From Octopus vulgaris (Eukaryota), in assembly GCA_951406725.2 (NCBI GenBank), contig OX597827.1:50468001-50532000 (forward strand): a stretch of DNA of 64,000 nt, read 5' to 3'. The first letter of the stretch is position 1. Each line of letters opens with the position of its first letter. This document shows positions 2,445 to 56,619 of this stretch, one piece after another. The notes below the pieces were generated by a model. It was not told where the DNA came from and did no database searches. It saw nothing but the letters and a program-made list of their open reading frames with translations. The translations under genes and the position numbers were made by a program.

Positions 2445-4235
2445 GCAAGCCTGTCTTTGTCGAGTTCAAAATAATAATTGATAAAGATTCAAAATTATAG
2501 AAATTTAAATTGAAAACATGAACAAGAGTAACCAGCATCCAAACGTTGATGGAATGACATCATCAGTCTTTAAGTTTCAGTTTTATAACAGACGAAAAAA
2601 AAGACAGAAAAAAAGAAGAAAGAAAAACAGAAAAGGAAAAGAAGAATAGTTAATCAAATTGTATAAATTTGATGATATTCTCCTGTCATTTTATCAAATC
2701 CTCCAGGGAGTGATGTTTATAACCCGCAAACATATTTCTCCTCATGCATTTTGAGAAGTGAAAGTGAAGCAAATTCAGAATATTTTCTGAGAATAAGCAC
2801 TTTCAAGTCTTTTTCAAAATTGCAGCCGTTTGAAGAAAAATTTTCGGCAAATTCTTTCTAACTACTGTTATTGTGCATGTCGTTATATCTGTGGCCATTA
2901 AATCTTTTGTTTATTGTTCTGTTGTACAACCAACATAAATCAAGCTGCGTTTCGTGCATTCTACCGCGTACACCAAATGGGAATCTCTACATGTGCCACG
3001 TTCTGTATAAAGCATAACATTTCTGTTATAATTCCTGGTGGAATTCACATGACTCATGTTGTTACACAATGAACAGGACTTACCTCTCTTTTGACTTCGT
3101 TTTCTTGGAGTCAGAAATAGAGGTCAATATTCTTATTCCGTCTAAAGCCTATACAATAGGTGGCTGAGGAAATTCTGTTTGAAACGGGTATATTTTTTCG
3201 CCACATGCTGGTAACTTTCATGAAACACTTTTTAAATGCCAGCGAAATTTCGGTGCTAGTTAATCACTAAATGAATTCTGTCATCTATTTTATTGTGCTT
3301 TCAAAAATTATGCGTGAAAGTTTGACTGTTTTAGTTACTCTTAGCTATTTCGTTTGCTATTTCCTTTAATCGTTATTCGTGGTAACTGCGTTTGATATAA
3401 TGATGTACAAAAGCATTTGCATGTTTCCAGTTATCCCCTATGTCAGTATAAATCCGTTTCAACCGCAAAAATTGGGATTTCGGATTTGACAGAATACTAT
3501 GATGTGGAGGATCGGAGCAACGGTGGAGATAAATGTGTGATGACGTGGGCTTGCAAAATAACTCTGTCACTATTCTGCCTTCAGAAAACTTAACTTTTGT
3601 GTCCAAAAATTCAACGCTAGTTTTTGAAAAACTAGACGTAATTCTTATGTTGGACTTAAAGCCATAGATTTTAGCATAACAGCCACAGAAATGCAAGAAG
3701 TCACTTAAACTATCCTGTGACCCTTCCCAAACAACAAAGACCTCATCAGTGAATCGTAACCAGAGTGTTCATGAAGGGATTTGAATGTCTTCAGTAACTG
3801 CGTATCAAATTTCGTCATGAAGACATTAGCGAAATTAACTGCCACGGGAGTACCCATGGCTAGGTCTGGCGAAATTAACTGCCAAGGGGGGTACCATGGC
3901 TAGGTCTGGCGGTAAACTTTTTTTGTCCAAACTTCATTGTGTTACTTTGTAACACAAACCTCAATAATCTACAGAGAAAACTTGACAGAGTACTTTGTTT
4001 GACAGCTTTTCGATGGCAACCCTGCATGTTTCTATCCCTCCATCGTGGTCAGATAACTTTTGTTCTTTTCTCTGGTTTTTAACTTAAAGACTGATGATGT
4101 CATTCTATAAACGTGTGAATGCTGGTTGCTCATGTTCGTACTTTCAATTTAAATTTCTATAATTTTTAACTTGACAAAGACAGCCTTGTTGTCGAAATAA
4201 CGTTCAAACAATAAAGTATCTATTGCAATCGCAAT
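2445..4235 (-). mobile_element. Penelope-like retroelement (decayed RT + GIY-YIG endonuclease) with inverted pseudo-LTRs
   Basis: Minus-strand RT remnants AMGTPVAVNFAN, WLRFTDEVFVVW, VEFLDTKV, KPTSSHIYLH, SQFLRLKRI; GIY-YIG-like CRDSHLVYAVECTKRSLIYVGCT at ~2911-3020; ~130-bp inverted repeats at ~2445-2575 and ~4080-4190; 39-bp tandem duplication near 3829-3910. Confidence 0.9.
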
Positions 4236-4236
4236 C

Positions 4237-4999
<763 letters not shown>

Positions 5000-5001
<2 letters not shown>

Positions 5002-5182
5002 TTTCGTCCGTCTTAGTGTTCTTAGTTCAAATTCCGCCGAGGTTAACTTTGCTCTTCATCCTCGGAAAGTCATAAAATAAATACCAGTTGATTGCTGGAG
5101 TCGATTACATTGACTTTTCCTTTCCCCCGAAAATGGTGGCCTTGTGGCATAATTTGAAATTATTATTATTATTATTATTATT
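5000..5182 (+). mobile_element. SINE family B, 5'-truncated; its (ATT)n tail hosts the R4/Dong LINE
   Basis: GTTCAAATTCCGCCGAGGTTAACTTTGC core; tail GGCCTTGTGGCATAATTTGAAAT(TAT)n. Confidence 0.8.
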
Positions 5183-6848
5183 CTATGTTTGACTTTTGCT
5201 TTATATTTGTACAAGTTGGCTCCAAGTCTCACCCAGAGACCTCAAGAGACAACAGGGTTGGAAGTTCATGTTGTTGTTATGCCTAGTGTGCCATATATTT
5301 GGGGGGTGGGGATGTTGTACTAATGAATGTCTAAAAAGAAAAAAAAAGGGGTTTTTTTTTTTTTTTTTTTTTTAAACCGAAAATTATGTTTGTTTTAAAC
5401 CTTGAGATTACATAGAGAGTATTTTGCGTAGGATATGAGCAGTTCCCATGAGCACTATCTTTTGAACTTCTGCCATTTTTGGGTTTCCTGGTATCTGAGT
5501 TAGGTAGCTATCAGCCCCTTTTGCTATCATTCCCAGGGCACCTATGACAACAGGTATTGTTTTAGTCTTCAGCTTCCACATTTTGCTGATTTCTATTTCA
5601 AGATCTTTATATTTGCTCAGTTTTTGGTTGGTCTTGACAGATACGTTTATATCGATTGGGACAGTCATATCAATGAGGAGGCATGTTCTTTGTTTGAAGT
5701 TTTTCAATATGATGTCTGGCCTATTTGCATCTATCTTCCTGTCAGTTTGAATGGTGAAGTTCCAGAGGAGTGAGATGTGGTCATTTTCAAGCACTGGGGG
5801 TGGTTTGTGTTCCCACCAGTTTTTTTCATGGGGCAAATCCAGGTTTTTACAGATTACCCAGTGAATATATTGTGCAGCTCTATCGTGCCTGTTGAGATAC
5901 TCTGTAGGCGCTAGAAGACTGCACTTGGAGACCACATGGTCAATGGTTTCATTTTGTTGCTTGCATACACGACACGTTGGACTGCTTCTGATCTTTAATA
6001 TGTTGGCCTGGTAGTTTCTTGTTGGTAGGCATTGATCTTGAGCTGCTATGATAAACCCCTCTGTTTCAGATTTTAAGCCAGAGGCCATTAGCCATTGATG
6101 GGTCAGGGCTTTGTCGATATCTGCATTATTCGCTCTCTTTGGGTATTTGCCATAGAGAGGTTTTTCTTGCCATTTATTATTCAGAATATCTAAGGCCGCA
6201 GTTTTGGCACGGGTTTTCATGCGCCTAGCTTTTTCTGTGCTTGTTTCTTGTATATCTATCTCTAATTCCGAAATTGGTTGTATTCGGAATTCACTTAGAT
6301 ATTCCTTTGCCTGTTTTGTGACTGAGTATGATGCTTTCTTGTTTTCATGTTTTGAGACAAGTTTTAGCATCCAGTCCTCAGAGTTTTTCAGGTAGGTGTC
6401 TAGGCCAATTGTAGCAATCTTCATTGTTATTGCCAGTTGCAAAAGACCACGGCCTCCTCTTTTCTTGGCAGATAGAGTCGTTCTGTATCTGCCTTAGGGT
6501 GGTGCATTCTATGCATTGTCAACAGTTTCCTTATTTTTCTGTCGAGCTGACATATTTCAGTAATTGACCAGTTAAAAATATTGAAACTGTAAGTCACGAC
6601 TGGTATAGCTAATGCATTGATTGCTTCGATCCTGTTTCTTGCATTCAGCTCTGTCTTGAGTATTGCTCTCACTCTTCGATAGCATTCTCTCCTGATCCTT
6701 TCCTTCATCTCTGAATGCCTTATTCCGTTCCCTTCAATTATCCCTAGGTACTTGTAGCTCTCCGCTGGGTCTAGTTCTTTTATGACATTCTGTTGGTCAA
6801 GGTTAACGTTAGATGTTTCTGTCATTTTTCCTTTCTGTTCATTTTTCC

Positions 6849-6849
<1 letters not shown>
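5183..6849 (-). mobile_element. 5'-truncated R4/Dong-clade non-LTR retrotransposon (RT C-terminus, CCHC finger, restriction-like endonuclease)
   Basis: YKYLG motif; CRVC...ETIDHVVSKC finger; RHD; NRPDII...LLIDMTVP...KLSKYKDL PD-(D/E)xK nuclease; one frameshift near 6440, stop at 5408; (TAA)n on both flanks, the known Dong target. Confidence 0.92.
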
Positions 6850-6903
<54 letters not shown>

Positions 6904-6999
6904 CATTATTATTATTATTATTATCATCATCATCAATATTATTACTATTATTATTATTATTATTATTATTATTATCATCATCAATATTATTACTATTAC

Positions 7000-10381: not shown

Positions 10382-11608
10382 TGTTCCCTAATTGATAGCA
10401 CAGATCAACTGCGATAAAAAAAAGTAGTCGCAAATTAAGCTAGACCATTTATAGATAGCCTGATTTGCAAGTTTGTACTTCTGGCGGCTTGCCATTAATT
10501 AAACAATGTTTACGTTAAGCACAGCACACCGTGTTATGCAAACGTATAGTGTCTCATCATATTTATATATTTTTAAAATATCTAAAACGTTACATTGACG
10601 TATTAATGCAGTAATACCTATGTTAATGTACGCTAGTGTAACCAAGAAATTGCTACCAGGATCTGCCGTCTTGATGTTCTTATTCATAATCTAAAACTTT
10701 ACTCAGGATGGTTTCCAAACATGAACAACAAACATTCATTCATTTCTCTCCAACACCTTATAACTTGTTGTATCAAAGTGCATACGATTAACAAATGAAT
10801 AGATGATTATTATAAATCTAAAGTCTATAGAATTTGCTAGAATAAATCTTTCCTATGGAAGTAATATACAAGAATTTATTAGCAAAGGAGTATTGATATG
10901 TGATGATTTTTGAAGACCTAAAGTTCTTAATCTAGACACATCGGTTAATTGTTCAGTTGATCAAACACCAACTTAAAAGATAAACTGGAGCACGTTAATG
11001 GCACTTTTTCTTCTTCAGTTTATTTCTTCTTAATGACAAGAACATCAAAGTCATACTGCATATGTGTATCGATATTGCTTACCAAAGGTCATGTGTTACT
11101 TAGTTCTTTAGTTTGTTTTAGACATTAAGGTCAAGGTTACGCTGGACCAATATCATCACATATATTTGGCTCTGCTCTACATTTTATCCATATTTAAATG
11201 AGGGACGGGATTCCGTATGGAGTCACTTTGCTTGTTGGATATAGCAGTCACGTTTGCATTAAATTACACCCTACCTTCTTAAAACAAAAGGAATATCACA
11301 TTGAAGAATGCAGTCCTGGATAAATACTATGAGATGTTAGTCAATACTAGAAAGTTTTAATCATAGTTCTTTTGGATGAGAGATGACCTGTGGTCAAACA
11401 ACAATAGCAAATCTTTACGTTGGAAAGATACATTTTAATTACCATCGTATTCGCGAGCATCATCAACACTGTTGCTATTGGCATCTTCGTTGTAGTCATC
11501 ATCGTCGTAATCGGCCTCCAATTCCCTTTCTCGTCTTCTACCTCCTCCCTCTCCTCTTGTAAACTACAAAGCACCGCAATATTGGGTTGTTATAATAGAG
11601 ATTTATAA

Positions 11609-11827
11609 GGCGGCGGGCTGGCAGAACCGTTAGCACGCCGGGCGAAATGCGTAGCCGTATTTCGTCTGCCGTTACGTTTTGAGTTCAAATTCCGCCGAGG
11701 TCGACTTTGCCTTTCATCCTTTCGGGGTCGATTAAATAAGTACCAGTTAAGCACTGGGGTCGATGTAATCGACTTAATCAGTTTGTTTGTCCCCTCTGTT
11801 TTGCCCCTTGTGGGTAGTAAAGAAATA
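11609..11827 (+). mobile_element. SINE family B, full length, with Tx1-type tail
   Basis: GGCGGCGGGCTGGCAGAACCG head, B box GAGTTCAAATTCC, core CCTTTCATCCTTTCGGGGTCG, tail GCCCCTTGTGGGTAGTAAAGAAATA; 17-bp TSD with 2 mismatches (11591-11607 / 11828-11844). Confidence 0.92.
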
Positions 11828-13698
11828 TATAATAGGGACTTATACTGATTGGGGTTGATACACGCTATCGAGAATGGTTATTGCTTGCTTTACCAAATAA
11901 ATGTTAGAAAGTATTTTAAACTATAATATACAGGGTGATTCAGAGGTTCCTTCTGCATTTAAATGATGTATAAAATAAAAATGTTAAAGGGGCTTATTAA
12001 TCACTCTGTACATTTATTTTCTTTAATTAGCGAGATGTGAACTCCCTGGAAGGGAGTACCTGCATAAGTGTACTCTTATCTGTGTCTTCCAGTATGTCTT
12101 CCTGGTTGTTTCAATATTTTAAGTCATCTGTTCTTCTTCTTGTTTTTATTTACTGGCAACACGTGAATCCATAAATTCGTTTTGGCTACTTTGTCAAAAA
12201 GATCGTTAAATTGTATATAAAATAAAATTCGAAGGGACTTCAGCGAGTATTTCATTTTGAAGTATGTCCCGTTTTGTTAAAATATATTTTCTCCGTAAAT
12301 GCTTGTTTGATTGCATAGATACCATTTTGTTAACTTTTCGTGCTTAAATTAATGTTAGAATTGTCTACAGCTGATTTGACATTCGTAATTGCAAGTAGAA
12401 CAACGAGAATTCCCACAATCAGCACGCAGTCATTATTCTCTTACACAGTTCTCTTTTCTGATTGATCACCTTTGGACTTCTCTCTACTTTCTTGGTTATG
12501 CATTCATTGCAGTGTAAATATTATGAATAATATTCATTGGTCTTAAATGTATGCCATAATCTTCCCCAACCCTTTTAAAATGCACTCAATTTTCAGCAGC
12601 TTTGTTGCATTTAGTCTTTTATCGACAGTTTTCTTTTAAGATTTAAAAATTTTATTTAAAATGTTTCCGCAAATCTACCATTTTTCTTCGTCGTATTCAG
12701 ATTTATATTTTTCTATAGAAATTCAGTAAAGGAAATTAATACAATGATCATCATATCTTTGACACTTTACCTCGTATTCTTCTTTTACCCGACTTTTTAT
12801 CTACTTACATTCCACCACTCTCAAACATATGTTCAATATATCTTTTAGTTAATTATATTTACTTCCTAAACCTAATCAATATCATCTTCCATCTCAGCTT
12901 TCACTTTCTTCTTTCATTCATATAACACTTCTACTGCTTTTCAAAACTTCTTTTCATAACCATAAATGCTTTTTAACAATATCTCAGCATATTTTTCTTT
13001 ATAATGTTCTAGTTTTTCAAAGCACTATCGATTTATCTATCTGTCAGTTTGTTTGTCAAGCTATGGGGAAAATATGTGCGGCAATCTTTTTCTCTCTTAT
13101 ATAGTATATTTCGTATATACATAGCCATATATCAACAACGTCCTAAGGTTTCATGATGCCTGTGAATGTAGCTCCTCGTCTGTGGATTTCTCTTTACATT
13201 ATTTAGGATAATTTCAAGTCACACGTCCGGAAAAAAACAACCGAGAGGCACTTGAGAGACGAATTGTAATTTGTCTTTGTATTTGTGTGCCACAGTTGCT
13301 TGGGCCTACACATAAAATACATTAATTGCAGCCTATGGAATATATGCAAATGTTGAGCAAATCCAACAACAACGAAAACAATCTCAAAATGCGCACTTTA
13401 CATGAACTTTATTGTAACACAAATGGAGCCAATCGTAGTGGACGGATGCAAATCAGTAAGACTTAATTGAATTAAACTTTTCAGAAATGTCATATTTTTA
13501 TCGCCGTAAAATATTCCAGAATTATCACCCCTTGCTTACTGTTGTTAATATCGTTTAATTTAACTTGACAACTAACACATTCCTATTAGCTTTAAGCAAT
13601 TGTTTTATCATAGTCGTCGTCATCATCATCCCCATCATCGTCATCATTATTGTTATTATCTCCTCTTCCTCTTCATCATCATCATCATCATCATCTTC

Positions 13699-14950: not shown

Positions 14951-15156
14951 GAATGTACACAATTACATAATGTATAGACTATATATAATATAATATGATA
15001 TCACAAACATGCACATGATATAATGCACTCAGAATAGATATGTAAATAGATGATTTTTCGATTATATCTAATTATTTCATTCACTTTACTGTTGCGTGAA
15101 AATTAAGGACAGATCATAATAATATTTGCTCAGTAACACTTCAGTACCGAGTGAAA

Positions 15157-18100
15157 ATGGCAGACTCACACCCTAAGAAGACCAAAAATATCTCAACAAA
15201 TCCAACATTTCCAGCCTCTCCATCACATGATGCACCCCCACATATAACTGTCAGTCCACCACCCCTTGCAACACCACCAGCAAAAGACTCACTACCATCA
15301 ACATCATCATCATCATTAAAAGCATCATCAACAACGGTGACTACTGAGATTTCTACTAGTGCCCGATTGGCAACATCAAGACAGTCTAGTAGTGTAGATT
15401 CATCTGCTTGTACAGAAAAATTGACAAGATCGTCGTCACAAAATGTTTCAAGTGTAAAACAATTACCTTCAGTATCAACTTCTTTGTCTGGAGCCAGTAC
15501 TTCTTTTCAGACCAGGACTGGCACTGCCCCGAAACCCATAGCCAAACCTACCAGTTTGAGTCTGTATCGTCCCCTCGAAAATGGTGGGATCGGTTACAGT
15601 CTGAACGCCTCAAAACATTTTAAAGAAGGGGATAAAAAAGCGAAAAAAGGTGACAAAGAAGATTTAAATTCGAAATTTAAGCCAAAGACAAGACGTTGGT
15701 ACTCAGCTGATCAAGAGCCAGAGTATTTTACAGAAAATGAAACACCGGAACAAACCCAACATAAGACTGAGTCTGAAAGTCACAAAGGAACTTTTAATAA
15801 AAGTAACAGTCTAGAAGAGGGCCAACAGAAGAGAGTTCTTGATAGAAGAGGTGCATTCAAGTTTAATAAAAGCAAATTAAAAGGTGACAGTCAGCAACGA
15901 TGTAACACTAAAAAAGAAAAGGATAAAATGCAGAAAAGTAATAGTACAGATAATAATTATGTTGGCGATGATGATGGTGATGTTGATCGTAATGATGATA
16001 AAAAAAAATCTAGTAGTGGATGTATGCCTGGCTCAGGAAAACGTAAAAAGATCAATCGTTATATTGGACATTTGGGGAGTAGCAATGAGGGAAGCGATGA
16101 AAGTGAAGGCTTCGAAAGTTCGGGCCGCGAACAGAAAGGAACTTTAAATCGACTGAGTAATAGTTTCAATCTTGGTTTACTTGGACTAGGGCTTGGCGCA
16201 ACTCGTTCAAGCCAAAAAGATGAGAAAAAGAAAAAGTCTGGTAAGAAGAAAAAAGAAGATAGTGAAAATAGTTGGTCTTTTAAAAGAAGGAAACCAAAAC
16301 GTAGCAAAAGTGAAGGATCGAATAGCAGTGACGGCACAGACACAGACGAGAGTTCGGCAACTACTTCAGAAAGTGGCTATCATAAAAGAAAAAAAGGTGG
16401 TATAGATCAAGCTCTCAGAAATACTGCCATAAGATCTGTAACAGAAATGATATCTGCAATACAAGCAATAGAGCTCCCGACTGTAACGCCATTTGATAGG
16501 AGGGAAGCGGTTCACAGATCCGAAAGCATGACTGAAAGAGAAGAGAGTTGGGATGATGCTGGATGTCCTCATTTCGAAGAAATTTCTTCATGCACTCGAT
16601 GTTATGAGAAGGAACATGACTGTAGAAATATTAATACTAATACAGAGCCAAGAGTTCCTTCACAGTCATTGTGGTTGTCGTACGATAACCGCAAACAAAC
16701 TGACAATGAAGAAAGTTTGCGGTACGAAATACAAGATCCGGCAGATAAACGAATGTCGCTAAAAGAACAATGGCTAAAGGAAAACAAACTAATAACATCC
16801 GAGCTTTTGTTACCCAAAACAATGCACCTAAAAACACCTCCTCCTGTCAGATCAACTCAAGACGTCGGACAACTTCATAATATAGCTATTTCTCAGGATA
16901 AATTTATTGCAGACCCAAAATCCTCAAAACCATCCCCTTTGTTAAATCCACAAGTATCCTCTCCATCTTATGCGCTTGCGTACATTCATGAAAACTCTAA
17001 ATCAAGCAAGCAGGGGTCCGTACTTCCCCTAAGTCAAGCTTTAACATCAACAATGAAGGAACAACAGTCAAGTATAAAATACAAATATTCATCAAGCTCA
17101 GCTGGGTCTTCGTTGAACCCTCAAAATGTTACATCATCACAATCACTGATATCAACCTTTCCGAATGTAATAACGAACCGAGAAAAGGGCATAGTTGAGA
17201 AAGAAAACGAAAAACTGGATTTTCACGGCGAAACACTTGAATCACAAAAACGTTTTCAAATGAAACATCCAAGTGAATTCCAAAACGAAGAAACTCTTGA
17301 TAAATCATGTGAAAATAAAGAAAAGAAAAATGAAAAGAGCGAAGAGTATTCTGACAAGCAAAGTTGTAAGTTCTTTCAATCGAACAGTAAACCATCTCGA
17401 ATACCCATCCTTACTCAAAGATCGTCGTCGGCCGAAGGATTTTATAGAAATAAACGGGTAGATTTGAAAAAATCAATGAGTATTGGTACAAGTGTTTCTA
17501 GAAGTGGAGACAGGTACGCAGATATGTTTGTTTCCCAAATTAAAACTGGTAAAGCAAGGGAACGACAAGTACCAATAAATTCGCCAGTCTACACTAATGC
17601 GACTAGTATGAGTGGCTGCAAACTCAAAACTGATAATGCTTGTACAGGGACGACATTGTCAACTAATAAGACAGTTGTTTCTTCACTAGCTATGAATGTG
17701 TTGCCTCCTTCAGAAAACAGTATAAAATCCATTACAAGTACGTCTACTATTTCCTCTGATACTACAATACATACTATTGACAAAACCTATGCAAAAGATC
17801 AGGTATCTTCACTTACAGATCCAGCCGTATCATCTACTAATCATAGCAGCGGTGCAAGTGAAATTATTAACCTGAATAGCAAAGGTTCTGCTAGTGCCAT
17901 TAATGTCTCTGCTAGTAGCAGAAGTGCCGGTACCGCAGATGGGAAATGCCACTATTACGACGGTAGCAACAGCCACTGCCAACAGTCAGTCAATAGGACA
18001 TATAAGCTAATACACAGATCACAATCTGGCAACGACAGCCTCTGCAAAGCGGCTCTACTTCACGCTTCTAACGACAGCGAAAGGAGAAGTGATGTGTCTA

Positions 18101-19933
18101 TTGTTGACAGTAGCACGGTTGACTTGCATGGAGCTATTGATGTCGCTGGCAGTGGAAGCTATGCGCAAGCAGAAATTGTTGCAACTGCAACGAAACCAAC
18201 ACGAGGAGCGGAGAGAAGGGAAAACAAAAGGAATGTAATTCAAAAACAATATGCGCAAACTTCAGCGACAACACAATCCTATCAACCACTTGTTACTAAT
18301 GTTACCACTCAGCAGACTATCGGAGGAGGTTACCAACAGACAATTAAAAAAACAGAGCAACATAAATATCAACAAAAACAACTAATTCTGCAACAGAACA
18401 CGTCATGTTTACGATCATCAGCATCGTCAAACAGGGAGTTGGCATCTAGTTGTATCAAAGGACAAGATGGTGTTTATTTTGAGCCTGGAACATTTAATAA
18501 AACAGATATAGAACAAAGAGATTTTAATAGTATTAACAACAGAAGAATCAACATCAGTAACAATGGAACTGATTATACAAATGTATACTCCCGGGAGAGG
18601 CAGCAAGGGGCAAAATCAATCACATCCACTGATGGTACCGATTCATTGGAGCGGTCCTGGAACCTTGATAATGGCCAGAATTTAAGTTCCACTCAAGAAA
18701 CGAGTGATGTCCGAAATCCGAGGTATAAGTCACCAGAATTAAAGAAAACTAAGAATAATCTCAGTGAAGATAAATGTCAACACAATCAACCGGATCAAAT
18801 TAGCCGAAAGACTACAGAGCAAAGTAATTACCCATTAGTTTGTACTGTTTATACTGCCGATGGTCTGGAAACCATTCCGATATATCCGTATTATATTAGT
18901 AACAGTACTGACGGCGGAGACTCGAACTATCAGGACAACTACTCAAGTAGCTATCATTTTAATGTGGGAGATTCGAAACATACAGCTTCGTCGAAAATAG
19001 CTTTTACAAAATTAGTGGACTGTACAGAGGCTTCGTCCCAGACCGAAACCACATCTCCAGCAATTAGTCAAGTATCGTCGATTAGTTCAACAGCTGGTAC
19101 ATCATCGAGAGCGGTGACAGTTTTAGCAGCATCTGCATTAGCAACCACCACTTTAGCCGCTGCTACATCAGCCAGACGAACTAAAGCGTGTGCTGAAAAG
19201 AAGAAAAAACTACAAGAAACTATTCAACCATGTTCCGGTAAAATCACAACAAACCAAGGCGATGTGCGCTATAGCAACAGAGCAGCATACCAGGTTTTCC
19301 ATCCTGACAACAGCTCCAGTCACTTACCTACTACTGTAGCATACGACTCTTGTCAGAACTTTCACAACGATAGCTGGCCTGTAACCCACGTAGCTAAGAG
19401 CCAGGGCTTAAGTCACGCAGGGAATGCACCAGCCTTAGCAACTTACCGAACGAAGGAATCCAGTGAAGCCATACCAAATATTGTTTTGCCGAAAACAGTG
19501 TCTAAGGCAGACCACGTTGCTAGAAGTAATCGACGAATTAGCTCAGCACCTTTACAACATCAAGAGACACCTTTAATTGCATCAGGTCATCAAAATTATT
19601 CTAATGTATATGCATACCCTCCTCCCCCACCCTATCCTCCCCCTCCTCTTCCGCTACCTTCTTCTCAGCATCCCTGCGCTTGCTCTCATCAATGTTTACA
19701 ACCGTCGCGGCAATCGTGTTTACGGTTTAACAACAACGTTGACACAAACACATTAAATGCCCCGTTGTTGTCTAACACTAGCACGACTATAGCAGCAGCT
19801 ACTAATATTACGTCTACGACTACACTTTCTGCTGGGGATCTACTCAAAACAAACTGTCAAATAGAAACCGGAGACGATGGATTTACTTCGTTATCTAACC
19901 ATGGAAGACGAATGAAAATAAGTAATCATCATC

Positions 19934-19983
<50 letters not shown>

Positions 19984-20165
19984 CCAAACAGATTTTGCAA
20001 CGATAACTGGCAAAGCGCCTATAGCGATTCCCAAAAGATGTCATCGTCCCGAAAGCCCCCACGACGAACTCGAGTAATGGATCCACCTGTAAACTTTCAC
20101 AATCGACGAGACAGGTCGTTTGGGTTTTTATCATTTCGTCTTGGAGGAACAGAGAAGAATTTCAG
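15157..20165 (+). CDS. giant (~5 kb) coding exon of an unidentified host gene; Ser/Thr/Lys-rich, probably largely disordered N-terminal region
   Basis: About 1670 open codons in AT-rich DNA with no TE motifs; AAAATGG start context; basic NLS-like tracts, PPPPPY/poly-Pro, poly-Asn; ORF runs into CAG|GTAAAT donor at 20165/20166 (the in-frame TAA is part of the donor), so the protein probably continues. Confidence 0.85.
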
Positions 20166-21647
20166 GTAAATAAGAAGCAGAAATGCCACAGTTAAGGTTT
20201 ACAATTTCTTATTTGAGCTGTTTTCTTCGTTTTGTGTGCCATGTGTTTTAATTTCAACTTTATCTTTCAGAATTTTACTTTGTGTTTTGAAACTACCACT
20301 TTGTACTTCATATTATTTACATGTACACACGCGTGTACATGTACACACACATACACACAGAATCTTATGTCAATATAGAATAAACAGTAAATATAATGCA
20401 TGCAGGAGTGTGCGCATGTGTGTCTGTGTGTGTATGTGTGTGTGTGTGCGTGCTCGTGGAATGCAAGGAAGAGTGAGAACAAGCGGGTAGGTAGACTGAC
20501 AAATTGAAAGATTGAGTGAGCGAGAGATGGTGAGAGATAACTACGAGGGTTACGTTTTGGTCAGTAATTGTCATACTTGTTCCGTACAATTACACAAGTT
20601 AAAATAAAATTATCAATACAACACATTAAAAATAAAGACAACGACAACCTAAGTGAAAATATTTATTCTTTTAATGTTATTATAAGTTGGGGTGAGCCGC
20701 AGACGCCTACCCCCACTCTCTGTCTGTCTGTCTGTCTCTCACTCTCTCTTGTACTTCATATGTATTTCTGTATAACTTGATATAACTTCACACTCATACA
20801 CACACGTTTGCGCGCATGTACACACACACATGCATAAACAAGCAATCACACACGCACACATACATACACACACCTACATATATGCGTGCGTGTGCGCGTG
20901 AGCGTTTCTAAATAGTACAGGTATTCTTAGTCATACGGCTAAGGTTCCTGCAAATCGTAAAAAAAGTATTCAACAAATTTAAAGTCAGAGTTACAGTAAC
21001 CTTTAAAATATTGAATATGAATTCAACATAATATAATATCAACGTAATATATACAATATGATATAAAATATAATATGATATTAATGTAATATATAATACT
21101 ATAGAACATGCATCCCCACAACCCACAAATTCGCACATACACAGAGTAATGTTTGTATCTAAATGAACTGTGCCTCTGCTTCCTGTTTCCTCTTATATTT
21201 TATCCATCTAAAAAAATCCTCGGCGACACTATGTTGGTGTTGCACATGTGTGACGTTCACGCTTAGTCATCAAACATAGATGAAAACAAAATAAAACATA
21301 ATAAGGCACAAAAAGAAAATTACTCTCCCCAGACACAATAAAATAAAACACTTAACCTTGTATTTACATCTATATTGATGTTTGAGAAAAAAAAGGAGCT
21401 ATAGGGCAGACAACTAGAGACATATGTAAACAGGTCGATTAGTTTCAGACGCGTCGCGTGCTGCGGCAGACGACAGACTGGAGGAGAATTTTCTTGTCTG
21501 ACAGATGTAGACGGAAGTTTTCTGATTCCATTTCTCACTGCAATGTGGAGTAAGTATTGTCAAGTTTGCAATGGGTTAAAAGTTCTGATAGCTAATCTGC
21601 TAGTTCGCCCTCCAAATGGGACATCATGAAGGGGTTATAAAGTGATT

Positions 21648-27339: not shown

Positions 27340-27912
27340 ATTGATTTCAAATTTCGGCACAGGGACTATACTTTCTATGGCGGGAGGAAGTCAATTACAT
27401 CGACAAACTCTTCCCTAGTGCTCAACTGGTACTTAATTTATCGGCCTCGAAAGGATGAAAAGTAAAGTCGACTTTGGTAGAATTTGGACACAGAACATAA
27501 AACGGAAGAAATACCTATTTCTTTACTGCCCACAAGGGGCTAAACACAGAGAGGACAAACAAGGACAGACAAACGGATTAAGTCGATTAAATCGACCCCA
27601 GTGCGTGACCGGTACTTAATTTATCGATCCCGAAAGGATGAAAGGCAAAGTCGACCTCGCTATAGCGGCAGACGAAATTCCTATTTCTATACTACCCACA
27701 AGGGGCTAAACACAGAGAGGACAAACAAGGACAGACAAACGGATTAAATCGGTTACATCGACCCCAGTGCGTGACTGGTACTTAATTTATCGATCCCGAA
27801 AGGATGAAAGGCAAAGTCGACCTCGGCTGAATTTGAACTCAGAACGTAACGACAGACGAAATACCGCTAAGCATTTCGCCCGGCATGCTAACGCTTCTGC
27901 CAGCTCGCCGCC
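27340..27912 (-). mobile_element. SINE family B trimer: head + 2 x (body + Tx1-type tail) + body with ordinary tail
   Basis: Junctions AGAAATA|GG(T/A)ATTTC at 27681/27682 and 27515/27516. Confidence 0.9.
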
Positions 27913-27929
27913 TTGGCTGGTACACATAG

Positions 27930-34326: not shown

Positions 34327-34670
34327 TCATTACCTATATGTATACGTATTCATGTAAATGTAACTTTCAGTGGTAGCTCTAAGTTCTATAGAAAATCTGC
34401 AGAAATAAAGTGAAAAGTGATTTTATGTCTTTTATTCATTCACAAATATGTTGGTACCACGTCATAGTTAGTGGTAAACTACCTAAGCAGACACATTTTG
34501 TTGTACATGCAATGGATGTCGGAACACATCAAAAGAATGACTTTAGCTTTCGCGCTAACATAGAAAGAAATTATATATGCAAAGAAAAGCAATTTACGAT
34601 TCTATCTCTCACTAGAGATGGTTCCATTGTGGAATAGGATTTATATCGCAGTTTGCCGTAAAATCATTCT

Positions 34671-35136
34671 TGTAGTTGCAATTGCGAGAGAGGTGATTTG
34701 GAAGACGAGGCTGAAAGGTATAGAGCCAGGCAATTTCATCTCTAGCCCTGGATTGGTGAATTACTTCATCTTCCACCTGAAAAGGAAAATAGGGCTGGAG
34801 AGAAAATGCCTGACTGAGAAAGTGTTTGAAAATCGATGGAAGAGTGTAGCACGGATGTTGCGTGTGGATGGAACCGCATGAAAGCAAAACAGAACGAAAC
34901 CCAGGTATCAGTGGCGAGGCGGGGCTCGTGGGGTCCGAGCTAAATCCTCCCCCACTCCATCCATAATGTCTTTCGGTCTGTCTTAGCATTCGATTTCTCC
35001 GATTTCATTATATGTTTGTAATTATGTGTAATTTTTTCATTTCATCCTTTGTGTAAAATCATTCGTGAATCTGACCCCAAATCAGGTTGTATTGTCCCCT
35101 CTTTGTTCGCCCCTTGTGGGTAATAAAAAAAAGGTA
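34671..35136 (+). mobile_element. 5'-truncated Tx1-like LINE (ORF2 C-terminus + 3' UTR), second family
   Basis: Exact 17-bp TSD TGCCGTAAAATCATTCT (34654-34670 / 35137-35153); VAIAREVIWKTR...ERKCL...FENRW; tail GTCCCCTCTTTGTTCGCCCCTTGTGGGTAATAAAAAAAAGGTA. Confidence 0.85.
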
Positions 35137-54825: not shown

Positions 54826-55770
54826 TATTCGCGTAATTTTCGAAAGTCGTGCTCAATAAAATTTTAATATTTTGCCCAACTTTAAAAATTCCACCAACCC
54901 AGTGCCCTTCATTGATAGGATAAAGACAGAGTTCAACTCGACGGGATTTGAACTCAGAACGTTTTAACCTATCTTCTAACCCCTTTGCCGATTCGCTCAA
55001 TTCAGTTGATATGTTGTAGAAAATACGATGATTCCTTCTATGTTATAGGTATTTATCTCTGCATGATATATTAAATATCATGCATAATGTTTACAGAAAA
55101 TCATTAAATAGAAAAAGCGAAACGAAGCAGATGCACAAGAATATCGATATGTACTCTTTATATAGAGGACACAAGATGAAAGCAGATTAAAATTTTATAA
55201 AAGACTATTATACCGTATGCACCATAATTTAGAAACGCACGTCAAGTAGAAGTCTGTGTTAATAGGAATTGAAAGGTGTTTGAATTGAAATGTGTCAGAT
55301 ACTTCATACGAAGAAAATGACTATCTAAACTGACTGGGAGAACAATTCACCTTTCTGTATCACCCCAGATAATCATGAAATTTCGTACTGCTTGAACTAA
55401 GAGGAGATTTTCTTTTCATTTGCTGCATACGGAAAGGAGATAATGTACTGAAATGGTTTGTCCAAATTGCTACCAACATGAAATCAATTTACTTATTGCC
55501 ACACAAGCAGACAGTCATCGGTTACAGAACAACAGAAGTTGATAAGTAGCAAGAAAACAAATATTGTATAGATGTTATTACTTTGGCAAATCATGTATTT
55601 AACATGTCACTGAGAGGGTTATTTGATGAACTGTATGGTAATCGCGCATGTAGATGTCTAATTGCTCTACAGAATAGACAGTTCTACAAAACGAAATTGA
55701 TGAATTACCTGAATGCTCGAGAAACGCATTTATAAATGCTACACTTTCTTAGTCGATATTTGGTTACGTA

Positions 55771-56291
55771 AAGGCGGCAAGCTAGCAGAAACATTTGCAC
55801 GCCGGGCGAAATGCCTAGCAGTATTTCGTCTGCCGTCACATTCTGAGTTCAAATTCCACCGAGGTCGACTTTGCCTTTCATCCTTTCGGAGTCGATATAA
55901 ACGACTTAATCCGTCTGTCTGTCCTTGTTTGTCCCTTCGGTGTTTAGCCCCTTGTGGGTAGTAAAGAAATAGGTATTTGGTCTGCTGCTACGTTCTGAGT
56001 ACAAATTCTGCCGAGGTCGACTTTGCCTTCATCCTTTCGAGGTCGATTAAATAAATACCAGTTACGTACTGGGGTCCTTATAATCGACTTAATCCGTTTT
56101 TGTCTGTCCTTGTGTTTAGCCCCTTGTGGGTAGTAAAGAAATAGGTATTTCGTCTGCCGCTACGTTCTGAGTTCAAATTCCGTCGAAGTCACTTTTGCCG
56201 TTCATCCTATCGAGGTCGATAAATTAAGTACCAGTTACGTACTGGAGTCGATCTAATCTAAATTTCGGGCCTTTTGCCTAGAGTAGAAAAG
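55771..56291 (+). mobile_element. SINE family B trimer (same architecture as 27340-27912)
   Basis: Exact 16-bp TSD GATATTTGGTTACGTA (55755-55770 / 56292-56307); junctions AAAGAAATA|GGTATTT at 55971/55972 and 56143/56144. Confidence 0.92.
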
Positions 56292-56619
56292 GATATTTGG
56301 TTACGTATATTTCTGGTATTTGTCTTGCATTAAAATATTTTAATATTTATTCCCCATTATGTTGACATATTGATAAGCCGGGAATCTATCATAACCACTT
56401 CATCTATCAGTCACTCACACACAGATGTACATACATATATATGTATAATACGCACACATACATACACACACTCTGTCTCACACACTTTACTGTAACCTCG
56501 AGATTTCTGTCTATACAATTAATTAATTTCTCTCGCCTTCTTTATATGTGTGCGTGCGTGTGCGTGTATAAGGGTGCTTGTATGTGTCCTTATGTGTGTG
56601 TGTGTGCTTGTATGTGATA

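Follow-up and report, generated by a model that had tools for sequence, protein, structure and literature searches.

How does a chain of repeat units come to be joined, again and again, at one and the same letter? The question is raised by a composite short interspersed nuclear element (SINE) of Octopus vulgaris that lies on the plus strand at 55771-56291 of a 64,000-nucleotide stretch (the window; contig OX597827.1 of assembly GCA_951406725.2, positions 50,468,001 to 50,532,000), consists of a 50-nt head and three units, and is bracketed by a single target-site duplication (TSD). The answer put forward here, to which we give a rough probability of 0.62, is that SINE copies with a particular tail were inserted at GGTAT(TTC), mostly 48 nt into a resident copy of the SINE-B family, and that in-register chains likely form through an upstream homology join that replaces the resident head. 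The parts of the element, in window coordinates, are these.

55755-55770, plus strand: 5' copy of the outer TSD, GATATTTGGTTACGTA, identical at 16 of 16 positions to 56292-56307.
55771-55820, plus strand: chain head, the putatively promoter-bearing 5' part, 50 nt.
55821-55971, plus strand: unit 1, body and tail ending AAAGAAATA, 151 nt, with an internal deletion.
55972-56143, plus strand: unit 2, body and tail ending AAAGAAATA, 172 nt, its first letters GGTATTTGG standing at the fixed junction.
56144-56291, plus strand: unit 3, body with a different tail ('O1'), ending in CCTAGAGTAGAAAAG; likely a resident, older copy.
56292-56307, plus strand: 3' copy of the outer TSD, 16 of 16 identical to 55755-55770.

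Two companions in the window are needed for comparison.

27340-27914, minus strand: second trimer of the same plan (head 27914-27866; unit 1 27865-27682; unit 2 27681-27516; unit 3 27515-27340), with junctions at 27682/27681 and 27516/27515.
11607-11827, plus strand: single tailed SINE copy at a non-SINE site, between TSD copies 11591-11606 and 11828-11843 (TATAATAGRGAYTTAT, 14 of 16 matching).

The coordinates bear out the original prediction that both trimers consist of a head, two tailed units and a unit with another tail, that a single 16-bp TSD encloses the one at 55771-56291, and that all four internal junctions read AGAAATA / GG(T/A)ATTT, the end of a tail being set on the same position of the body each time. 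The junction letters are AAAGAAATA / GGTATTTGG, AAAGAAATA / GGTATTTCG, ATAGAAATA / GGAATTTCG and AAAGAAATA / GGTATTTCT. The last unit of the second trimer (27515-27340) carries a third kind of tail, 'O2'-like, ending in GTGCCGAAATTTGAAATCAAT. Within a SINE-B copy the site reads GGTATTTC and falls 48 nt into the head, with the B-box-like GAGTTCAAATTCC downstream of it. Neither ARAGORN (window 11500-11900) nor Rfam (window 11590-11840) calls a tRNA on the head, so that its promoter boxes, the B-box-like motif among them, are putative. The site also forms the apex of a 12-bp hairpin, an inverted repeat of the head at window 11640-11667, which folds at -15.3 kcal/mol (z -2.9) and is equalled by 1 of 200 shuffles; the junction region and the tail fold no better than shuffles (z 0.88 and -1.39).

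That the junction is fixed is evident from the whole genome of 2.8 Gb, where its exact 32-nt sequence occurs 23,743 times and the reversed control not once, a count far beyond chance; the 21-nt tail alone occurs 79,902 times. An unselected sample, namely the first 100 tails on contig 1, shows how common such joins are: 59 tails run into a SINE body, the B-box zone being recognisable in 56 of these bodies and damaged in 3; one more tail leads into no more than 29 nt of a further unit before the flank begins, and after the other 40 comes other DNA. The sampled loci comprise 56 chains and 44 single copies. Entry into SINE-B at the same position by 59 of 100 tails lies above the 20% of copies that must be exceeded for target preference in PMC4494074; the further expectation that targeting would not be absolute is likewise borne out by the sample, since 41 tails have no SINE body after them. 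In the sample together with four window elements, 32 have the plain head-body-tail form, 19 have two units ending in the same tail and 17 have two units ending in another tail, with longer forms of up to four units; elsewhere in the genome an array reaches 11 units (L254). As in tRNA-derived SINEs with LINE-derived 3' ends (LINE, long interspersed nuclear element), the tail is common to a LINE family, and TSDs of 9-24 bp surround monomers and chains alike.

If the letters GGTAT are a property of the DNA target, they should also be found where tailed copies lie outside SINEs, and they are. GGTA(T) follows 12 of the 38 tails that are not at junctions, and GG follows 20 of them, against backgrounds of 0.33% and 4.3%. 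Among about 32 elements whose TSD is clear, with 9 or more matched bases, the 5' copy begins with or near GGTA, GGTT or GTATT in 8 (L033, L046, L047, L050, L051, L070, L079 and L094; list read by eye), and because the motif thus opens the 5' copy as well, it belongs to the target. Another 8 of the 38 tails lie in (TA)n. Two tailed copies (L038 and L041) run into the same sequence, GGTACTGGCAATGSCYATGCTCAAATG, which is perhaps a second repeated target or part of a composite element.

The most direct evidence comes from nested copies. A pattern of the site zone, 2-12 nt and the start of a new head gave 120 matches, with 80 distinct loci among the 100 matches listed, whereas the same pattern placed at the B box gave 4. 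Thirty of these loci were fetched, 29 of them distinct: 9 have an older head immediately before the new copy, 12 carry the new copy inside a chain, at the junction site of one of its units, and 8 are ambiguous. Inner TSDs of 15-17 bp, beginning with GGTAT, flank three full-length nested copies (L110, L054 and L121). At L110 the inner TSD GGTATTTCGTCTGCA carries a private variant of the resident on both sides of the new copy, and an outer TSD of 17 bp brackets the resident; L121 has a similar layout, and at L054 the inner 17-bp TSD GGTATGTTCTGAGTTCA repeats a private deletion of the older copy on either side of the new one. Tailed copies therefore insert into pre-existing SINE-B copies at GGTAT(TTC), as had been predicted, and the nested copies show this directly, each being flanked by duplicated target sequence and all standing at the same spot. 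Most chains have no inner TSD.

One conceivable route to such chains involves DNA alone. A monomer that ends in GGTAT(TT) presents a short direct repeat 184 nt apart, which slippage or unequal exchange could expand; in a variant of this account, a few multimeric masters would have spread ready-made chains. Relationships among units bear on both versions. Adjacent units of chains with two tailed units agree at 3.96 of 8 subfamily marker sites, and random pairs agree at 4.30 (n=26, permutation p=0.86); in chains of three or more tailed units the figure for neighbours is 6.21 of 8 against the same 4.30 (n=19 adjacent pairs). Clustering of monomers by locus, which the original prediction had named as its own refutation, is accordingly absent from the two-unit chains, which are the majority, and present in the longer ones. 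Units 1 and 2 of the trimer at 55771-56291 are 84% alike and not nearer relatives of each other than of units in the second trimer, whose own units 1 and 2, at 93%, are the closest pair among the six. Pairs of marker haplotypes vary between loci, which argues against any single master; last units bear at least three different foreign tails; and a repeat of 5-8 nt cannot account for 59% of tails. At the level of these marker letters, independent origins are established for the units of two-unit chains, and local duplication is not the main source of chains. The predicted independence thus holds for the trimer at 55771-56291 and for two-unit chains and fails for chains of three or more, where clustering by locus indicates that local amplification contributes too. 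As a full account, DNA events alone appear very improbable.

Slippage or unequal exchange nonetheless also acts, once a first junction exists. Besides the 11-unit array there are tandem arrays whose repeated unit, 64-69 bp long, joins the SINE head to the first ~16 nt of the body; it is present in 9 copies at L251 (G000:C10:17995600-17999600) and in 21 copies at L253 (G000:C5:87872000-87875800), each with a single body behind it, which indicates tandem amplification at the level of DNA; at L252 (G000:C13:69033500-69036600) four such heads precede three tailed units and a body. The SINE body also shows a recurrent internal deletion between two GCCG motifs, GTCTGCCG / AGGTCGAC (L219-L248 and further places), and units with the deleted body form arrays of their own with a period of ~158 bp (G000:C26:21174790-21177348).

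How insertion into a resident copy could yield a chain in register may be pictured as follows. A master already lying at such a site would be transcribed past its end, so that the template RNA would carry GGUAUUU(CG...) as a trailer; RNAs ending AAAUAGGUAUUU(U) would be expected, above all from chains whose next unit reads GGTATTTTG. The trailer would anneal to the nicked bottom strand and prime reverse transcription there. The nicked bottom strand would be peeled back, and the head part of the cDNA could then anneal to the top strand of the resident head, so that the new strand would replace that head, add exactly one 184-nt unit and leave no visible duplication; unequal exchange or slippage might lengthen chains later. 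That RNAs can carry letters of a previous landing site is seen in two elements. At L066 a head, body and tail are followed by 29 nt of a next unit, all within one TSD (GGGCCAGAAGARATGC), so that the template RNA was read through from a chain. The other is a LINE fragment in the window.

34670-35135, plus strand: 5'-truncated LINE copy with a related tail; longer copies contain the RVT_1 and zf-RVT domains.

This copy ends in AAAAAAAAGGTAT, and its GGTAT lies outside its TSD, GCCGTAAAATCATTC. In a wider form the proposal is more tentative and falls somewhat short of an even chance: the SINE would use its own resident copies as landing pads, with trailer-guided priming, a fresh head swapped in and one unit added, whereby promoters would be renewed and 184-bp satellite-like arrays seeded by reverse transcription rather than by DNA slippage.

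The more serious competitor is template switching in a single event. Reverse transcription would begin at the tail of a SINE RNA and proceed to position 49. The cDNA end made there, complementary to GGUAUUU, would pair with the trailer GGUAUUU on a tailed SINE RNA and be extended along it, once or repeatedly, until a head had been copied; integration of the finished chain would leave one TSD. This account predicts the same layout as insertion into a resident and differs from it in the ages of the parts, for a chain made in one event should be of one age, with a young last unit and a near-identical source for that unit elsewhere. The observed ages lean the other way. Last units of the O1 type are further from their own consensus than first units in 9 of 11 chains (0.104 vs 0.074, p=0.059), and in a larger set of 22, in which one locus is counted twice, the last unit is the more diverged in 14 and the first in 7 (0.092 vs 0.068, p=0.07). 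They are about as diverged as stand-alone O1 copies (0.092 vs 0.096, n=9), which speaks against their having been copied along with the rest. Among 26 two-unit chains, a subfamily with the tail GGGCAATAAAGAAATA stands second in 9 and first in none.

Three loci, two of them at the places given here, allow the source of the last unit to be sought.

L082: G000:C1:1810021-1813041, chain with a young head and first unit.
L226: G000:C2:15333763-15336793, chain with a young first unit.

At L082, L226 and L093 the first unit lies 2-4% from its consensus (at L082 the head and first unit together ~2%), whereas the best other full-length copy resembling the last unit reaches 85%, 89% and 90%, respectively, 40 of 3,307-5,734 first-look candidates having been scored in each search. 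At L082, moreover, contigs from three other organisms contain the junction between last unit and flank, with 11 of 122 letters different in one organism (stretch 1120-1251 of the locus is covered in X2, X3 and X17, and the contigs break inside the repeat). That the junction is held in common suggests that the last unit predates the young head and first unit, which template switching in one event does not foresee. Nor can template switching make the nested copies with inner TSDs.

The heads both support and qualify the preferred reading, that is, insertion into a resident followed by a homology join. Heads of O1-ending chains diverge on average by ~0.08 from the consensus of the tailed-type head, and those of stand-alone O1 copies by 0.159 (n=9) or by 0.21 in a set of 15 of which a few may be head-less (p=0.0007 vs chain heads). 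To judge by sequence, the chain heads are of the young, tailed type and not of the old resident type; a head variant found in some chains, GCGTAGCC (L087, L141, L226), is seen only in tailed copies. It follows from the youth of the chain heads that the resident's own head must disappear. The original prediction of a homology-resolved 5' junction consequently survives in altered form, not as a simple join onto the resident head but as a probable replacement of it. The site zones as well speak against a simpler model, one that would preserve both the head and the site zone of the resident, for chains with GTCTTTA-type last units are concordant at the marker letters in ~2 of 10 cases (list read by eye). 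The scarcity of 5'-truncated chains was considered as an argument and dropped, mid-body truncations numbering 4 of ~45 monomers and 1 of 57 chains.

A number of observations weigh against insertion with head replacement, and several of them speak for template switching instead. The twin searches had the limited depth just given, and the O1 age differences are modest (p 0.06-0.07). In same-tail chains the age gap is not significant in one comparison (0.061 vs 0.071, n=26, p=0.45) and stands at 13 vs 9 of 23 in a second (p=0.13). Joins of the TSD type make up 1-2 of 59 sample junctions, so that resolution by homology would have to prevail by about 50 to 1; such resolution leaves no unique scar and is deduced, not directly seen. 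The junctions have GG in 51 of 56 cases, as against 42 of 73 at native head-body boundaries, an excess that calls for a choice among targets or for a GG borne by the RNA; that GG prevails whatever the native dinucleotide counts in favour of template switching. Two to four head-less chains start at position 49-51 (L055, L081, perhaps L031 and L080), and a head-less O1 copy with its own TSD AAATTTTAGTGKAT (L140, G000:C5:31386135-31389292) starts exactly at GGTATTTCG, a position that may be a stop for reverse transcription; chains and copy together fit such a stop, which would favour template switching. The site zone of the first unit, further, is not a copy of that of the second (Hamming distance 4.5 vs 4.99 for random pairs, a comparison of little power), whole chains are bracketed by one TSD abutting a tailed-type head, and the trailers that template switching requires exist, at L066 and in the LINE copy at 34670-35135. 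Taken with the ages and the nested copies, these points leave template switching an unlikely, though substantial, alternative.

It also weighs against insertion with head replacement that an autonomous LINE bearing the exact tail did not turn up at the site, whether among the fetched loci, by a pattern placed after the site zone or by a tail-variant pattern (the form of the tail relevant to elements bearing a reverse transcriptase ends in GTAAAGAAATA). Matches of the after-site-zone pattern are mostly internal deletions, and the 8 matches of the LINE-like tail variant comprise 4 SINE copies, 3 other retroelements without reverse transcriptase hits and 1 uncharacterised locus. The label Tx1, which the original prediction had attached to the tail, is therefore not confirmed: a LINE family with a related tail was found, an exact-tail partner was not. 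That family is the one with RVT_1 and zf-RVT domains represented at 34670-35135. Its tail resembles that of the SINE at ~85% by eye over the last ~45 nt, and none of 39 copies with a recognisable tail lies in SINE-B. Seven of the 39 tailed copies share the 3' flank CACAGCCGCTTCTACTGAGTACTGCTG (family members include the window copy, L150-L154 and L185-L218), which suggests that the LINE, for its part, goes to a fixed target in a different repeat. The window copy, of ~465 nt, had been entertained as a short passenger element, and was rejected as such when longer copies revealed a truncated LINE.

Other retroelements deserve mention in their own right. Three loci (L257, L259 and L261) hold non-SINE retroelements that end in the same GGGTAATAAAGAAATA tail; L257 has a frame with a CCHC zinc knuckle, and L259 and L261 have a 321-aa frame that belongs to no family and is unlike the C-terminal part of the LINE. 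Two further features of the window are the following.

5408-6984, minus strand: LINE carrying a zf-RVT domain and ending in poly(A)-like sequence.
15151-20169, plus strand: open frame of 1,672 aa without a Pfam family.

The LINE at 5408-6984 was rejected as a partner of the SINE, being of another, poly(A)-type family. It has 117 genome matches at 99-100% amino-acid identity, one of them the window's own copy, and open frames of up to 1,318 aa, and the family is very young and probably active.

SINEs make up about 11.6% of a published 2.8-Gb octopus assembly, according to PMC13282606, and the accessible parts of this and another paper on octopus repeats (PMC8967140) make no mention of a self-targeting SINE. 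A wider search found no description of one in the literature within its reach, which excluded subscription journals and Repbase reports. If the reading is true, a SINE whose landings fall mostly within earlier copies of itself would do little harm to the genes of its host as it spreads, would go on providing intact promoters, would create tandem arrays, and would offer a route from dispersed repeat to satellite. Target-specific retrotransposition, described for foreign targets such as rDNA, snRNA genes and DNA transposons, would thereby come to include self-targeting.

Precedents for both kinds of 5' join, by resident homology or by template switch, are reportedly to be found in the chimeric L1 insertions of Gilbert, Symer and Buzdin (all 2002), some of which are said to have paired with a resident L1 upstream and others to be U6-L1 chimeras made by template switching. 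Those chimeric L1s are reported as sporadic, whereas the octopus SINE uses one fixed junction tens of thousands of times. Among target-specific LINEs of the Tx1 clade, Tx1 itself inserts in Tx1D, Keno in U2 genes, and Kibi and Koshi in microsatellites, as listed in PMC4494074. The octopus SINE is like these in its site-specific, target-primed insertion into repeats, with 8 of 38 non-junction tails in (TA)n; unlike them, autonomous elements as they are, it is known from the passenger SINE only. The closest described case is that of SINEU-3 and SINEU-1/2 with the Tx1-Mar LINEs of crocodilians, where a single repeat family, a DNA transposon, harbours 90% of SINEU-3 copies (Kojima 2015, PMC4494074). 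There the target preference of SINEU-3 is common to Tx1-type LINEs, co-transcription with the flanking target is also raised, the expected TSD is fixed, and sequential insertion is given as the origin of tandem copies 'sandwiching a TSD'. The octopus SINE shares with SINEU-3 the target preference of a SINE. It differs in that no partner LINE with the exact tail was found for it, in that most octopus chains are in register with no TSD between units, in that the resident head appears to be replaced, and in that the target is not an unrelated DNA transposon but the body of the SINE itself.
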